This document shows positions 18,533 to 61,977 of a stretch of DNA of 64,000 nt, piece after piece. Below the pieces are notes generated by a model. It did not search any database and had not been told where the DNA came from. It saw nothing but the letters and a program-made list of their open reading frames with translations. Position 1 is the stretch's first letter, and each line of letters begins with the position of its first letter. The DNA comes from an uncultured Actinomycetota bacterium. GTDB lineage: Bacteria; Actinomycetota; Thermoleophilia; RBG-16-64-13. The DNA is taken from contig CAVZSN010000011.1 in the NCBI GenBank assembly GCA_963777945.1, positions 164,303-228,302 of the forward strand. The letters run 5' to 3'. A program made the translations under genes and the position numbers.

Positions 18533-18627
18533 ATACCTTGCTAGGGGAGCGTGTAGCTGAGAGTGTGGCCCGGCCACAGACCCTACGAACCTGATCTGGG
18601 TAATGCCAGCGAAGGGAAGTAACGGTG
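18533..18627 (+). ncRNA. TPP (thi-box) riboswitch
   Basis: GGGGAGC...GCTGAGAG-hairpin-ACCC..GAACCTGATCTGGGTAATGCCAGCGAAGGGAAG; begins just after the extended -10. Confidence 0.95.
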
Positions 18628-18722
18628 ATCCGCCTCAGCCTCGTCGCCGTCTGACGGCGCTCTGACGTCGACCTCGACAGATCGCCGCATCCACCCCCAG
18701 TCGCTCCGAAGAGGAGTGACGC

Positions 18723-53593: not shown

Positions 53594-53881
53594 ATGGCCA
53601 CTCATACTGTCTGCCCGCGCTGCGGAGCGCGTGACTCGTTCATCAAGGGATATCTTCCCGACACCTGCGTGTGCCGAGTGTGCCAGAGCCAGCTCGACTG
53701 GCGCGAGATCCCCGGCTGCGGCCCGGATTGCCAGGCGATGAGAGCGGGAGGCGCTCCGACTGGCGATGACGCCGCCCAGGATGGCGCGGCGTCGAGGGCC
53801 GACGCCGACTCCGCGCCAATGACCGCCGACTCGGGTGACGACTCGGCCTGCGGTCCACTGGCCTCAGGACCCAAGGCGTGA
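53594..53881 (+). CDS. Small Cys-rich hypothetical protein
   Basis: AAGG before ATG; CPRC, CVCRVC, CGPDC, then an acidic Ala-rich tail; fills the gap between purQ and purL. Confidence 0.55.
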   Translation: MATHTVCPRCGARDSFIKGYLPDTCVCRVCQSQLDWREIPGCGPDCQAMRAGGAPTGDDAAQDGAASRADADSAPMTADSGDDSACGPLASGPKA

Positions 53882-53894
53882 GGGCGGAGGAGCG

Positions 53895-56381
53895 ATGACC
53901 GAGCTCTACGAGCAGTTGGGCCTGACTCGTTGGGAATACGAGCGCATCTGCGACCTGCAAGGTCGGGAGCCCACGCACGTCGAGCTTGCCGTGTTCTCTC
54001 TGATGTGGAGCGAGCATTGCGGATACAAGCACTCCAAGCCGCTGCTCAGGCGCTTTCCCACGCAAGGTGAACACGTGCTCCAGGGGCCCGGCGAGAACGC
54101 CGGGATCGTGGATATCGGCGGGGGAGTGGCGGTGGCGATGAAGATCGAGAGCCACAACCATCCTTCCGCCGTGGAGCCCTACCAGGGAGCGGCCACGGGC
54201 GTGGGCGGCATCATCCGTGACATCTTCGCCATGGGTGCGCGCCCCATCTGTGGACTCGACTCCCTGCGGTTCGGCGAGATCCAGCCGCTGCCGGCGCGCG
54301 ACGGTGAGGTCGCCGCCGCGACGGGCGCCGCCACTGCAGCGTCGCCCGGCTCCGCGGCCGACGCGCCGGGCCCGGCTGCAGGCGCAGCCGGCGCTGTCGC
54401 GGCGCCACAGGATCCACCGTTGAGCGAGGCCACCCTCAGCCGCCAGCGCTATCTGTTCGAGCATGTGGTCGCCGGCGTGGGCGGGTACGGCAACTGCATG
54501 GGCATCCCCACCGTGGCCGGGGAGATCTATTTCGAAGACCCCTATGCCGGCAACTGTCTGGTGAACGCCATGACCGTCGGACTGGTGCGGCATGACGAGA
54601 TCATCCGCAGCGTGGCGGCCGGGGTGGGCAACCACGTGGTGCTCATCGGGTCCAAGACGGGCCGGGACGGCATCGGTGGCGCCAGCGTGCTGGCCAGCCA
54701 GGTGTTCGACGAGACTCTGGAGGAAAAACGGCCGTCGGTGCAGGTGGGCGACCCGTTCACCGAGAAGAAGCTGCTCGAGGCCTGCCTGGAACTGCTGCAT
54801 GCCGACCTTCTGGTGGCCCTCCAGGACCTGGGGGCGGCGGGAATCACCTCCTCGTCCAGTGAGATGGCGGCCAAGGGCGAGGTCGGCATCGACCTGCACG
54901 CCGACCGGGTGCCCTTGCGCGAGGCCGACATGGAGCCCTGGGAGATCATGATCAGCGAGAGCCAGGAGCGGATGCTCGCCATCGTGGCTCCAGACCGCTG
55001 GGACGGCGTGAAGGCGGTCTGCGAACGCTGGGACCTGGATGCCACCATCGTCGGAGGGGTGACCGACACCAAGCAACTGCGGGTGTTCTGGCACGGGGAG
55101 ATGGTCGGTGACATGGACGCCAACGCCCTGGCCGAGCCGCCCACCTACGATATCCCCCAGGAAAGGCCGGCCCATGAGGTAGACCAGCCTCTCGATCCGG
55201 CGGACTGCCCGCGACCGCAGGCGGCGCTCGACGAGATACTCCTCGACCTTATCGGCTCCCCCAACATCGCCAGCCGGCGCTGGGTGTGGAAGCAGTACGA
55301 CCATCAGGTGCAGCTCAACACGGTCATCGTCCCCGGCGGTGACGCCGCGCTCCTGCGGATCAAGCAGACCGGCGCCGGCATCGCCGTGTGCACCGACGGG
55401 AATGGACGTCAAACCTATCTCGACCCCTACCGGGGCGGCAAGGCGGCCGTGGCCGAGGCGGCGCGCAACGTCTCGTGCGTGGGGGCCAAGCCCATCGCCA
55501 TCACCAACTGTCTCAACTTCGGCAATCCCGACAACGGGCCCATCGCTTATCAGCTCGCTCATGCCATCCAGGGGATGGCCGAAGCCTGTGAGGCGCTGGG
55601 GACGCCGGTGATCTCGGGGAACGTATCGCTCTACAACGAGAGCTTCGAACAGCCCATCTACCCGACTGCGGTGGTGGGTATGCTCGGTCTCATGGACGAC
55701 GTGACGGCAAACTGCACCGTCGGCTTCAAGACCGAAGGGGACGCGGTATATCTGCTGGGCGACACCGACCCCTGCGCTGGATGGGTCCGAATACCAGAAG
55801 CGTTGGTACGGTGGCCCGAGGGGCCGGCCGGCAGGCCGGATCCCCGACGTGGATCTGGACGCCGAAGTGGCGCTCCAGCAACTGCTGCGAGAGGCCATCG
55901 CGGCCCGACTTCTGCGCTCGGCCCATGATGTCTCCGATGGCGGTCTGGCCGTAGCGGCCGCGGAGTGCTGCCTCGCCGGGGGAGTAGGCGCGGTCTTGGT
56001 GCTTGACGACGTGCCCTGCGTGGGCGGTAGTCCCGGCTGCGCGGCGGGCGCCGGCGCGGCGGAGACCCACGCGACCGCGGCCGGGCCCTTGGCCGAGCGG
56101 CCCGACCTGGCCTTCTTCGGGGAGACGCCTACGCTGGTGTTGGTCTCGGTGACTGCCGTCGATGCGGAGACGTTCGAAGACCTCTGCGAACGGGCCGGAG
56201 TGCCCTGCTTCGTGCTGGGTCATGTGGGCGGCGGAGACCTGGCGATGACCCTCGAACGGGGCGGCGCCGCGACTCTCGGCGCCGATGCCGCCACGGGCGG
56301 CGGTCGCGACGGCCTACGCGTGCCGGTCGCCCGGCTGGAAGACGTGTACGAAGCGGCGCTGCCGAGAGCCATGGGGGACTG

Positions 56382-56382
<1 letters not shown>
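53895..56382 (+). CDS. purL: FGAM synthase subunit PurL (frameshift near 55790)
   Basis: MWSEHCGYK, GPGENAG, KIESHNHPS, GRDGIGGA, DLGAAG, SESQERM, TNCLNFGNP, SGNVSLYNE, AHDVSDGG. Confidence 0.96.
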
Positions 56383-57822
<1,440 letters not shown>

Positions 57823-57824
<2 letters not shown>

Positions 57825-57891
57825 CCGCTGTACCCGCCTCCGACTCGCTTATGCGGGTACGCAAAGGCTCCCTCAGGCGGGTACAGCGGCT
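57823..57891. terminator. 17-bp perfect inverted repeat between convergent genes
   Basis: AGCCGCTGTACCCGCCT (57823-57839) / AGGCGGGTACAGCGGCT (57875-57891). Confidence 0.55.
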
Positions 57892-57920
57892 CCTCACCTA
57901 CTGGTCGGCGCGCGGCGACC

Positions 57921-59578
57921 TTAGTCATCGTCGGGAGTGCCCGCCGTGGCAAGGCGTACAGGTCGCCGTCGCGATACCCCGATTTGGTGGCAGCTGGTGC
58001 AACTGAGACGATGCTCGCCTGACGGCATGTGTTCTCCCACCGGGGATGGCGGAAGGTCGACGGCTCCCACGCCTTGGTCGTGTGGCACGATGCGCACTTG
58101 GTGAGCCCCCCGTGCTTGGTCCCGTGACAAGATACGCAGGTTGAGCCGACCTTCTTGAACGGAGTCCCGTGGCAGTTGGCGCACGAGAGGCTTGCATGGG
58201 CCCCTGTCAGCTTGAACGGATGCGTGAAATTGACATCGCTCCAGGACGTCGGGGTGTGGCAGGAGGCGCAGTTGGTCAACCCTTTGTGCTGATCGCTGTG
58301 GCAGGAGATGCAGGCCGGGTTGGCCGACGGGAACTGGGTGCCGGGGATGTTGGCCACTCCCGGCTTACTCTCGTGACAGTCGGCGCAGGTGAGGTCCTCG
58401 TGGCCGCCTGAGATCGGGAACGGATGCTCGAAAGTCACGTCGCTCCAGGACGTGGGGGTGTGACAGGAGCCGCAATCGGTCAGCCCCCCGTGCTGATCGC
58501 TGTGGCAGGAGATGCAGGCCGGGTCGGCCGATGGGAACTGGGTGCCGGGGATGTTGGCCACTCCCGGCTTGCTCTCGTGACAGTCGGCGCAGGTGAGGTC
58601 CTCGTGGCCGCCTGAGATCGGGAACGGGTGCTCGAAGGTCACGTCGTTCCAGGACGTGGGGGTGTGACAGGAGCCGCAATCGGTCAGTCCCCCGTGTTGA
58701 TCAGTGTGGCAGGAGATGCAGGCCGGGTCGGCTTCAGGCAGAGTGGTCCCCGGTATGTTCTCCACCCCCGGTTTGCTCACATGGCAGTCGGTGCAGTCAA
58801 GGCCGGCATGGGCGCCTTCGCGCGGGAACGGATGTTGGTCACCGGCCGAGCCCCAACTGGTGAGACTGTGGCAGGAACTGCACTCGCCCCTGGGCTCGTG
58901 CGGGGGAGTGTGGCAATACGAGCACTGTCCGGAGGCGGTGGTGCCGTCGTGGCAGGCCAGGCACGATGACATTGCCGCGGGGTCCTTGTAGGCGAGGGGC
59001 GGGACGCCGCGGTGAACGAGGCGGACATGGCAGTCCAAGCACAGCTCGTCGGCGTGAGCCTCGTGCGAGAACGGGACGTTGCCGAGAGTCATGTCGGCGG
59101 GGGTCTCGTGACACCGGAAGCAGCTGGAGTTCGGTATCTCCCTGGTGACCGCGAGCGGTGACTCGGAATGGCCCTCTCCGGAGTGCTCCGTCAGGTGTAC
59201 CCAGATCTCTCGGAACGAGAAGAGCTTGGTCTCGATATAGGACAGAGCGCCCGGAGGAATGTGACAGTCGCGGCATTCCGCAGCAGGCGAAGCGTGGGCT
59301 GAGTCCTGCCAACTGGTGTTGTACGGATCCATCTCGTGGCAGGAGACACAGAAGGGACTTGCGCTCGTGTAGTGAGCTGTGACAAAAGAGGCGATGATCA
59401 GGATGACGATCAGCGCACCAGCGATGGAGAGTCCGATTATCCAGCGCCGCCGTCGTCTTCTCGGAATCGGCGCCTCGGTTTCTGCGGGCGGCGGTCCAGA
59501 GGATGGCGCCGCATCGCCGGCTGTTGCGTCGGCCGAGATGCCATCGTTCAACGGAATTCCGTCTTCGTCCACGTGCAC
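57921..59578 (-). CDS. Membrane-anchored multiheme cytochrome c (about 21 CXXCH); start uncertain
   Basis: RRRRRRW + TM helix, NapC/NirT-like start (CVSCHEM..YNTSW..SAH..CRDCH); 19 CXXCH in frame, plus CTSCH and CTPCH in shifted frames at the 3' end. Confidence 0.92.
58225..58800 (-). repeat. 204-bp (68-aa, three-heme) tandem coding repeat, about 2.8 units
   Basis: GCAGGAGATGCAGGCCGGG recurs at 58301, 58505 and 58709; units are near-identical at DNA level. Confidence 0.9.
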
Positions 59579-59761
59579 CCCCGGGGGATCCGTCAGTCGA
59601 GAGACTCGACCCCCACACTCGGCTCGGGCCGACCCGCTTGTGCCCGGTGCAAACTGCGGATAGTGCATCACCATACCATACATACACTGCGTGTCCGCAA
59701 GATGCGGAGACGGAGCAATCCGGGCAAGCTCCGCTCGTTTGGTGGGCTCAGCAGGTGCAGA

Positions 59762-59790
59762 TTGACGTCTCTCCCGTCGCGGGATACCAT
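59762..59790 (+). promoter_or_regulatory. Sigma70-type promoter for the cob operon
   Basis: TTGACG (59762-59767), 17-bp spacer, TACCAT (59785-59790). Confidence 0.75.
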
Positions 59791-59799
59791 GGCTCGGCA

Positions 59800-59945
59800 A
59801 TCTCTCAGATCCGCGGGAACCCGGTGGGATTCCGGGACTGCCCCGCAACTGTGACCGCGGACGAAAGCCGCTGCAAGCCACTGCCCCTGGGCGGGAAGGC
59901 GCGGCCGGTAGGATGAAGCGGAAGCCAGGATACCGCGATGAGAGG
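59800..59945 (+). ncRNA. Cobalamin riboswitch
   Basis: GGGAAcccGGTG.GATTCCggg.CTGCCCCGCAACTGTGA, GCCACTG..GGGAAGGC, AAGCCAGGATACC; upstream of cobT. Confidence 0.93.
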
Positions 59946-60101
59946 ACGTCGCTACTAGGCCTCGCGGGAGGGCTCAGGTGGTCTTCTTCTCTGTACGTTT
60001 TCGGGCCTCCGCCACGCTGCGGGCTTTCCTGCTGACGCGCAGAGGCGCCTCCTCCCCCCCGACGGCACCCACCCCGACCCGCTCGTGATGGAGGACACCC
60101 G

Positions 60102-61977
60102 TTGAGCACGTTACTCGAACGCACAATCAGCCAGATCGGCCCGCTCGATCGCGAGGCCATGCAGGCCGCTCAGGCCCGGCAGGATTCCCTGACGAAGCCG
60201 ACGGGGGCCCTCGGCCGGCTCGAAACGCTCTCGGTCCATTTGGCGGGGATCACGGGCCGGCCCGTGCCGGCCTTTGCGAGCAAGGTGGTGGCCGTCATGG
60301 CTGCCGACCATGGGGTCACAGCGGAAGGCGTGAGCGCCTACCCGGCCGAGGTCACTCCCGGGATGGTGGCCAACTTCGCCGCCGGCGGAGCGGCTATCAA
60401 CGTCATCGCCAAGCACATCGGCGCGCGGGTGATCGTGACCGACGTGGGGGTGAACGCGGACATCTCTGCGCTGGAAGGGGTGCGGCACCGCAAGGTCCGC
60501 ATGGGCACGGCCAACATGGCCCTCGGGCCTGCCATGACTCGCGAAGAGGCCGTCCGGGCCATCGAGATCGGCATCGAGGTGGTCGAAGAGGCGGTCGCCG
60601 AGGCGATGATCGGTGCCGGCTCGGGCGCGAGCGCCGGCGGCGACGCGGCGACCGGCGCCGCCGCAGGCTTGTCCATGTTCGCCACCGGCGAGATGGGCAT
60701 CGGGAACACCACCGCCAGTTCCGCGATCATCGCCGCGCTGACCGGGTGCGCCGTCGCCGAGGTGACCGGCCGTGGGACCGGGATAGCGGTGGACGCTCTG
60801 CCCCGAAAGATCGCGGTGATCCAGAAGGCTCTGGAGGTGAATCAGCCCGACCCGAGCGATCCGCTCGACGTTCTCGCGAAAGTCGGGGGGCTGGAGATCG
60901 CCGCCCTCACCGGCGTCATCCTGGGGGCGGCGGTGCGGCGTTGCCCGGTCGTCATGGACGGGTTCATCTCCTCGGCCGCAGCTCTAGCCGCGGTGCGTCT
61001 GTGCAAGGACGCGGGGCCGTACGTCCTTCCAAGCCATGTCTCGGTGGAGGTGGGGCATCAGGTGGTGCTGGACGAACTCGGCCTGCTGCCGCTGTTCGAC
61101 CTGCAGATGAGGTTGGGCGAGGGCACCGGTGCTGCGCTGGCCATGTCGATCATCGACGCGGCCGCCAAGACCTTGGCCGACATGGCGACGTTCGAGAGCG
61201 CGAACGTCGCGAACCGGACGGAGGGTGAGTCCGGGCCGACGCGGACCGAGCGGCTCCTCTTGGTGAGGCACGGCGAGGCAGAGGGAGGGATGCCTGGAGT
61301 GCTCATGGGTCGTACCGACGCGGGCCTATCGGAGGCCGGCCGCGCGCAGGCGGCCCTCCTCGGAGAGGTCCTTCCTCTGCCCGGCTCGGTGACTCTCGTG
61401 AGCAGTCCGCTGGCGCGCGCGCGGGAGACGGCGGCCATCGCGGTCGCTGCGGCGAAGGCCGCCGCGGCGAGGGCTGGCGACGCGCGCAGGCTGCGACGCC
61501 GCGCCGAGCGCGTCGCCACGGCCGGCAGCGTCGCGGCGGGGTCGGCAGCAGCGGCGCCCATCGACCCCGACCTCAGGGAGATCGACTTCGGCGACTGGGA
61601 GGGACTCACGTTCGCAGAGGTCGGGCGGCGGTACCCCGCGCTGGTCGCAGCTTGGTCGGAGAGTTCAGCCTCGACTTCGGCTTTCCGGGCGGCGAGAAGC
61701 TGGCAGACTTCGCCACCCGGATCGAAGGCGTGGCGCGGCGTCTCGCCGCGGCCGAGACCGACACCGTGTCGCCTTCACTCACGGTGGCGTGATCCGCGCG
61801 CTCATCTGCCACTTCTTGGGTCTGCCTCTGCGCGACTATCTGCTGTTCGACATCACGCCTGCCTCGGTCACCACGCTCCGGCTGTGGGGCGAACGTGGCG
61901 TGCTGGCGGGTCTGCGCCGGGCGAGAGTCTCTCTGGACGAGCCTTGCAGCTGGGTATGGCGAAGATCGTCCTCATAA
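60102..61977 (+). CDS. cobT: CobT (NaMN:DMB phosphoribosyltransferase) fused to a CobC-like histidine phosphatase
   Basis: LTKPTGALGRLE, AADHGV, GEMGIGNTT, MRLGEGTGAALA, continuing in frame into RLLLVRHGE, LVSSPLARARETA, LREIDFGDWEGLT; HGGVIRAL in a shifted frame. Confidence 0.85.

Follow-up and report, generated by a model that had tools for sequence, protein, structure and literature searches.

A membrane-anchored cytochrome with 21 predicted hemes, an NrfH-type head and a c7-type tail in an uncultured Thermoleophilia bacterium

We analyzed a 64,000-nucleotide stretch of contig CAVZSN010000011.1 (assembly GCA_963777945.1, positions 164,303 to 228,302; ~68% G+C) from an uncultured Actinomycetota bacterium of the Thermoleophilia. 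In this stretch, hereafter the window, a minus-strand gene at 57921-59578 encodes a membrane-tethered protein with 21 predicted heme sites. We favor, with moderate confidence, its interpretation as a menaquinol:heme-chain oxidoreductase, that is, a covalent PpcA-like polymer that would carry electrons from the membrane into the wall zone. That the protein is a quinol-linked heme chain is well supported by its predicted parts, while its quinol oxidation activity, extended geometry, reach, acceptor and direction of electron flow are what we infer from them. The first-pass annotation of this DNA had proposed a wire leading from the quinone pool across the cell wall. The quinol-side start and the wire-like tail gained support here, from an NrfH-type head and a c7-type triheme tail respectively; trans-wall, extracellular or interspecies electron transfer is plausible but unproven.

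Head, linker and triheme modules

The protein is made of a cytoplasmic tail, one membrane helix, a tetraheme head, a triheme linker, four triheme modules and a diheme end, giving a heme total of 4 + 3 + 4x3 + 2 = 21. Its parts are as follows (residue numbers are counted from the GTG at 59578):

59447..59578 (-): start and cytoplasmic N-terminal tail, ~44 aa, acidic and Pro-rich, ending in RRRRRR; residues 1-44
59375..59446 (-): single transmembrane anchor helix (WIIGLSIAGALIVILIIASFVTA), aligning with the transmembrane helix of Desulfovibrio vulgaris NrfH; residues 45-68
59009..59374 (-): NrfH/NapC-NirT-type tetraheme head, hemes 1-4 (CVSCHEM, CRDCH, CFRCH, CLDCH); residues 69-190
58865..59008 (-): triheme linker, hemes 5-7 (CLACH, CSYCH, CSSCH), all three motifs invariant in the family; residues 191-238
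58661..58864 (-): c7-type triheme module A, hemes 8-10, 68 aa; the module profile matches PpcA
58457..58660 (-): c7-type triheme module B, hemes 11-13, 68 aa; one copy of a tandem duplication
58253..58456 (-): c7-type triheme module C, hemes 14-16, 68 aa; second copy of the duplication, not present in the closest relatives
58079..58252 (-): shorter c7-type triheme module D, hemes 17-19 (CANCH, CVSCH, CASCH), 58 aa; conserved in 18-heme relatives
57921..58078 (-): C-terminal diheme end, hemes 20-21 (CTSCH, CTPCH), conserved in the family and broken by three indels here

Several comparisons point to an NrfH-type head. The Pfam profile PF03264 (NapC/NirT) scores 71.2 bits against a cut-off of 24.1 (E 1.2e-19), with residues 46-190 aligned to positions 7-170 of the 174 in the profile. 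The NrfH structure 2j7a_C in the Protein Data Bank (PDB) is matched at E 3.7e-15, and an alignment to it at E 1.3e-15 runs from the transmembrane helix through all four heme sites. Both results agree with the first-pass annotation, which had noted one N-terminal membrane anchor and a NapC/NirT-like start. The anchor consists of RRRRRRW followed by ~23 hydrophobic residues and is modeled by AlphaFold2 as a helix over residues 41-73, at a predicted local distance difference test (pLDDT) score of 88-94. Based on the positive-inside rule, its N-terminus would lie in the cytoplasm, and the helix may be cleaved after VTA. The four CXXCH motifs of the head, at residues 77, 102, 153 and 180, all align with those of NrfH; CVSCHEM falls on CTSCHIM, and 'ETKLFSFRE' on 'PFKAIAGARD'. 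Residues C77, C80, H81, E82, M83, K118, R123 and E124 are invariant among 49 family members. In 2006, Rodrigues et al. reportedly identified the Met of CXXCHxM as the proximal ligand of heme 1 in the NrfH structure. A Lys and an Asp line the menaquinol/HQNO (2-heptyl-4-hydroxyquinoline N-oxide) pocket in NrfHA structures; the window protein has Lys and acidic residues at those positions. Features common to D. vulgaris NrfH (PDB 2J7A, 2VR0) and the window protein are a lone N-terminal transmembrane helix, the order of the four heme sites, the CXXCHxM signature, and the conserved Lys and acidic residues after heme 2. However, NrfH is a protein of 159 aa that is encoded beside nrfA and docks onto NrfA, whereas the window protein has 17 more hemes and no nrfA.

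The tail resembles cytochrome c7. The Pfam profile PF14522 (Cytochrome_C7) reaches 83.3 bits against a cut-off of 24.8 over three stretches, the best of which (169-224) overlaps the linker, and a profile of the modules matches residues 22-69 of Geobacter PpcA at E 1.7e-5 with all three heme sites covered. The four modules share the pattern W..(F).HPF...G.H..L.C..CH...PG....GT......C.SCH.D.H.GLT.C..CH. At the DNA level, Tandem Repeats Finder reports a repeat of period 204 in 2.5-2.9 copies with 88-92% matches; modules B and C are 93.1% identical and differ by 6 synonymous and 5 non-synonymous codons. Judging from these sequences, the fourth module of the window protein was gained by a recent 204-bp tandem duplication.

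Heme ligation can be considered from the same residues. The first-pass annotation had pointed to additional His residues as possible distal ligands, and the QHGG, EHPF and GGHE that it listed are all present: the 512 aa contain 23 His outside CXXCH, three of them in each repeat module. There is no Met in residues 204-512, hence none in the modules. Bis-His ligation throughout is therefore plausible. Heme density in the tail is ~21-23 residues per heme, the same as in c7 itself, and leaves no room for a catalytic domain.

Close parallels to the tail are PpcA and GSU1996 (PDB 3OV0): the window modules, ~68 aa with three CXXCH motifs each, match PpcA, and their tandem array is like that of the four c7-type domains in GSU1996. 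GSU1996 holds 12 hemes in a 12 nm heme wire, with one His-Met heme per domain (PMC10138318). These proteins differ in that they are soluble and periplasmic and come from a diderm, whereas the window modules lack Met and are joined to a quinol dehydrogenase head. The window modules are members of the c7 superfamily without being PpcA orthologs.

No equivalog cut-off of NCBIfam was reached by any of the models tried (NrfH, NapC, TorC, NrfB, c7, DmsE, HmcA, TmcA, NetB and ExtN/O). NrfH (TIGR03153) scored 63.7 bits against 134.2, napC_nirT 29.8 against 310.6, TorC 41 against 455, and the DmsE/MtrA decaheme model (TIGR03508) 68.6 against 192.2. The Geobacter c7 model (NF043011) gave 63.8 against 120, and the modules sit in an anchored protein of ~550 aa. 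ImcH is defined by three transmembrane helices and seven CXXCH, and the window protein has one and 21. With a low-confidence AlphaFold2 model as the query, a Foldseek search of the PDB returned only NrfH (2vr0_F, probability 1.00, TMt 0.49) for the head and no match for the tail.

Extent of the gene

The gene reads cleanly in a single frame from GTG 59578 to 58043, which gives 512 aa and 19 CXXCH motifs. Hemes 20 and 21 are found in two other frames in the final ~120 bases (58040-57921), and joining all 21 motifs takes three frame changes: at CCCC 58042-58045, GGGG 57977-57980 and GGGC 57939-57942, each a short run of G or C. Given these changes, the first-pass count of about 21 hemes over this span is borne out. 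The joined reading, obtained by three-frame reading and DNA alignment with two relatives, closes with ...CTPCHGGTPDDD and the stop TAA at 57921-57923. The shifted pieces contain no internal stop and encode the conserved end of the family, HP.VGEH...C..CH..G[YF]....C..CH.G.P..D, which is thus readable here in shifted frames; the reconstructed C-terminus fits this end as it is seen, for example, in P0102 ('HPRVGEHIPGGEHRLSCQDCHASGFGAATCTPCHDGVPRGD'). As assembled, the frame continues past 58043 to 57794 as a junk tail.

At the 5' end, translation probably starts at GTG 59572 rather than at GTG 59578, because a Shine-Dalgarno-like GGGGG lies 6 nt upstream of it, at a better spacing, and because homologs begin with 'VDEVG/MDEVG' at this very point. 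The longest open reading frame (ORF) over the locus, 57794-60160 (minus strand, 788 aa), was discarded as a candidate for the gene, because the 190 codons at its start pass antisense through a cobalamin riboswitch and the 80 at its end lie in the wrong frame. Since homologs start near 59572 and the extension up to 60160 reads through the riboswitch antisense, we regard this 5' extension as spurious. Database protein P0015 shows the same spurious extension.

A family of stand-alone genes

Of 8000 candidates scored in a word-index search, 1625 proteins reached E<=1e-5. Members of the NapC-headed family are 284-544 aa long and have 12, 15, 18 or 21 heme sites (counting a terminal C-X-CH), a series that follows 9+3n; two further members, P0018 and P0118, have 21 sites. 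The nearest homologs, P0001 and P0002, show 74% identity over 94% of the length and carry a single B-type module and 18 heme sites. The window protein conforms to the family blueprint of a head, a triheme linker, n triheme modules, a diheme end and a stand-alone gene. The family is unnamed, and its NCBI product name is 'NapC/NirT family cytochrome c'.

Close members occur in genomes of uncultured Actinomycetota, 'Actinomycetes', Thermoleophilia and Gaiellales, nearly all of them long-read soil and sediment metagenome-assembled genomes (MAGs) labelled MFD. Seven of the eight other genomes of the genus contain the family, as do 14 of 28 related genera, and frames are mostly intact. One congener carries a tandem pair, in which an 18-heme copy follows a shorter one whose end is disrupted (G001:C16:244358-246765, locus L091), and another genome (G003) has extra paralogs made of c7 modules only (C29:62032-62916 and C16:131440-132278).

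Many 15- and 18-heme relatives (P0001-P0008; L087, L088, L090-L092) have a last heme site that reads C-T-CH or C-S-CH, with one residue between the Cys, where the window protein and more distant members have CTPCH. This ending may represent a conserved CX1CH heme-attachment site, of which, to our knowledge, there is no previous description.

The gene stands alone in every context read, as the first-pass annotation had observed for the window. Here, purF converges on it from downstream, and upstream a cobT-cobC-cobU-cobS operon, starting at 60102 under the control of a cobalamin riboswitch (59760-59954, plus strand, 91 bits), is divergent from it. Close relatives have the same arrangement, with the gene lying between the riboswitch-controlled cobT-cobC-cobU-cobS operon and convergent purF; in distant relatives, it lies beside catalase and glyoxalase genes. 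Elsewhere in the window, we noted a thiamine pyrophosphate (TPP) riboswitch at 18533-18634 (plus strand, 67.7 bits).

Distant relatives (23-31% identity) keep the CXXCHxM head and have a longer tail; they were found in the following groups:

Coriobacteriia / OPB41-like MAGs: 18-27 heme sites
an Actinomycetes MAG: 29 heme sites
Clostridia / Bacillota: 12-22 heme sites
Eisenbacteria: 18 heme sites
Bipolaricaulia: 19 heme sites
a Terracidiphilus MAG: 46 heme sites

In Acidobacteriota and Eisenbacteria, the NrfH-headed cytochromes have 17-46 hemes. The window protein is therefore a variant of a recurring design that is known from genomes, is biochemically uncharacterized and is not specific to monoderms.

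The lineage itself looks monoderm, as the first-pass annotation had thought probable: a search of 31 genomes of the lineage (24 of high quality) gave no Omp85/BamA, and the control search found it in all seven diderm controls that have it. Because the source genome encodes MqnA and MqnD (G000 C6:194847-195656, E 9e-70; C3:384392-385160) of the futalosine route, a menaquinone pool is expected; classical MenA was not found there. CcmF, CcmA and CcmC on contig C8 indicate cytochrome maturation of the Ccm type. A search of the source genome for WhiB found none, which is uninformative in an assembly that is 59% complete and frameshifted.

Only one other locus of the source genome has multiple CXXCH motifs, at 64-78 kb of contig C8 (within locus L002, C8:60001-80000). 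Its cytochrome genes encode a hexaheme protein in which 'paired CXXCH' and MtrC-like domains are recognized, two heptaheme cytochromes c, each paired with an FdnI-like cytochrome b, and a NapC-like protein of 7 hemes that has a PSCyt1 domain and is frameshifted. Surface proteins are encoded as well, one of the DUF11 type with two heme sites and others rich in Thr, together with an NHL-repeat protein, a two-component system and the CcmF, CcmA and CcmC named above. From its gene content, this cluster looks like a kit of the extracellular electron transfer (EET) type. A DNA pattern of closely spaced CXXCH pairs, when applied to the congeners, catches only the 21-heme family, and it misses the C8 cytochromes of the source genome itself.

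Proposed electron flow and possible reach of the heme chain

In the mechanism that we propose, the N-terminal helix and hemes 1-4 would act as an NrfH-type menaquinol:cytochrome oxidoreductase head, with heme 1 of the CXXCHxM signature at the membrane surface. The other 17 hemes would be strung together, with little protein around them, on the outside of the single membrane, and electrons from menaquinol would hop from heme to heme to acceptors located within the wall zone or past it. Such acceptors could be humics, Fe(III), shuttles or other cytochromes, and the flow could reverse. Chain length would be set by the gain or loss of modules, at 12, 15, 18 or 21 hemes. We also considered a bolder form of this proposal, a complete conduit of one polypeptide in a monoderm, linking menaquinol to external acceptors through the wall zone with no dedicated partner and evolving its reach by 68-aa triheme modules; this form we put forward tentatively, as possible but rather unlikely.

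In function, the nearest proteins described so far come from other monoderms and are known from surveys or partial biochemistry. Thermincola ImdcA (Tfer_0070), from a Gram-positive metal reducer, is a membrane decaheme cytochrome thought to oxidize menaquinol via a high-spin heme and to start electron export through the wall (PMC7911101). By description, it is likewise a membrane-bound multiheme cytochrome of a monoderm; however, it has 10 hemes and passes electrons to separate cytochromes of the periplasm, wall and surface (ImdcA-PdcA-CwcA-OcwA), whereas the window protein has 21 hemes and no neighboring cytochrome genes. A second likeness by description is the 'putative Q-oxidase' of Carboxydothermus ferrireducens (Ga0395992_02_135863_137242), a constitutive protein of ~460 aa and 20 hemes proposed to oxidize quinol for Fe(III) reduction, with homologs in two OPB41 isolates, Anaerosoma and the Fe(III)-reducing Parvivirga (PMC7829351, PMC9686372). 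This too is a monoderm protein with a quinol-side anchor domain; what is known of it comes from surveys of genomes and proteomes. In Coriobacteriia and Clostridia, relatives of the window protein carry 18-27 hemes behind their CXXCHxM head and are only 23-31% identical to it. Multiheme cytochromes have previously been noted in neutrophilic Actinobacteria (PMC7399161). CymA of Shewanella is a NapC/NirT member encoded by an orphan gene and proposed to link the quinone pool to extracytoplasmic multiheme chains, and ImcH and CbcL of Geobacter, inner-membrane quinol oxidases of EET, have the same proposed role. None of the three has c7 repeats: CymA has 4 hemes, ImcH three transmembrane helices and 7 hemes, and CbcL 9 c-hemes and a six-helix cytochrome b (PMC6295460).

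A number of points weigh against a menaquinol-driven chain into or through the wall. Extrapolation from the 12-nm GSU1996 gives ~15-17 nm for 17 tail hemes at ~1 nm each, while Gram-positive walls are 20-80 nm thick (PMC7911101); the chain may thus fall short of the wall, although a thin wall could be crossed. Because the same head-plus-tail design occurs in diderms, it need not be a wall-crossing device at all. Neither an LPXTG nor an SLH wall-targeting signal was found in the sequence. The AlphaFold2 model, built from a 49-sequence alignment and without hemes, is unreliable (pLDDT 58.5, predicted template modeling score 0.31). Other candidate quinol-side cytochromes are encoded in the C8 cluster of the source genome. 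Finally, three indels break the 3' end in the assembly, and the last two hemes would be lost if these were real.

The protein might instead be a general quinol dehydrogenase in the manner of CymA, the tail storing electrons and handing them over at short range to several soluble or wall-bound partners encoded elsewhere, with no spanning of the wall. The orphan position of the gene recalls cymA, which serves many reductases (PMC6295460), c7 polymers of the GSU1996 type have been discussed as capacitors (PMC10138318), and the EET-type C8 cluster could supply partners. The distribution of the C8 hexaheme argues the other way: it is confined to the genus, where five of nine genomes have it, a narrower range than that of the 21-heme family, which it does not track (the family occurs without the hexaheme in G002, G003, G004, G006 and G018). 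Co-occurrence thus gives no support to a partnership between the two. Few exported clients are visible among molybdopterin enzymes either. Of ~18 molybdopterin oxidoreductase loci in the source genome (for example C11:86853-91023, C5:35614-40773 and C6:237371-246157), only one, C7:123098-124249, has a twin-arginine translocation (Tat) signal (TRRQFLKGAG), and it has an NrfD partner beside it. We therefore rejected a hub for exported molybdoenzymes; no DmsC was found in the source genome either. On balance, we find the storage and hand-over role rather unlikely. As a side observation, nearly all these molybdopterin enzymes share a Cys-less N-terminus, GGPVHVDVEDGRIVRIRPL...YSP.RI.YP, and lack a Tat signal, which suggests a cytoplasmic family of the hydroxylase or transhydroxylase type.

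Electrons may also run inward. Reduced humics, Fe(II) minerals, a cathode or a syntrophic partner would then reduce menaquinone through the chain and feed a cytoplasmic reductive metabolism. NapC/NirT-type proteins such as CymA have been proposed as quinone reductases too (PMC6295460), and multiheme genes of the actinobacterium Coriobacteriaceae sp. EMTCatB1, which we liken to this gene by description, are induced on a working biocathode with a proposed function in electron uptake (PMC7943316). However, bis-His hemes of the c7 type are usually of low potential, which suits menaquinol oxidation equally well, and the sequence does not fix a direction. We consider a dedicated inward wire unlikely.

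Could the gene be decaying, as a pseudogene or as one whose product stops short at 19 hemes and ends in junk? Such a process would fit the crowding of three frame changes into 130 bases after 1536 clean ones. Yet essential neighbors are broken alike in this assembly: in the purL-purF region (53835-57824), purF is split over three frames (56382-57824, plus strand) and purL over two, and for this reason we read the 3' breaks of the cytochrome gene as probable errors too. The source genome is rated 59% complete at 2.57 Mb, whereas congeners of 2.5-3.3 Mb are rated 90-96%, a gap that fits an indel-ridden long-read assembly of the kind seen in purL and purF. The break sites, all in short G/C runs, and the stop-free conserved end encoded by the shifted pieces likewise speak against decay. 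One ortholog of the same genus (L089) breaks in the same 3' stretch, and five other orthologs from the same genus or family are intact. Assembly errors are most likely the cause of all three breaks, and real decay is quite improbable. Around purL and purF, we noted an indel rate of ~1 per kilobase.

That the protein is a plain NrfH or NapC subunit of a nitrite, nitrate or trimethylamine N-oxide (TMAO) reductase is highly improbable: its head is best matched by NrfH and homologs carry the JGI label 'nitrate/TMAO reductase-like tetraheme cytochrome c subunit', but NrfA was not found in the source genome or in seven of eight congeners, the one true nrfHA pair (G010) has its own small NapC-like gene directly adjoining nrfA, the family members examined have no reductase gene next to them, every NCBIfam equivalog cut-off is missed, and seventeen extra hemes are foreign to such subunits. 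Had homologs turned out to be known subunits of a defined periplasmic reductase, the first-pass proposal would have been overturned; for the full-length homologs this is not the case.

We thus return to a menaquinol-oxidizing head that feeds a c7-type chain as the reading we prefer. Points of interest are the 9+3n series, the very recent gain of a module, the strict orphan status of the gene and its spread in uncultured soil Actinomycetota. In Gram-positive bacteria, electron transfer through a thick wall has been outlined for only a few Firmicutes (Thermincola and Carboxydothermus), in which several proteins are needed. The 21-heme family places a putative quinol-oxidizing head and a modular heme chain on one polypeptide, encoded by a stand-alone gene that is widespread in uncultured soil and sediment Actinomycetota. 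Should the protein act merely as a hub or store, its fusion of a c7-type polymer to a quinol dehydrogenase would still be the first one found. How chain length affects electron transfer could readily be tested on the naturally occurring members with 12, 15, 18 and 21 hemes. If it works alone, the protein would be a minimal and easily transplanted electron conduit and a simple genomic marker of extracellular redox capacity in actinobacterial lineages that are abundant yet unstudied; a true one-polypeptide conduit would be the simplest known cytochrome-based pathway of EET, and would reveal an unrecognized route of Fe(III) and humic respiration for soil and sediment Actinomycetota, including Thermoleophilia and Gaiellales.

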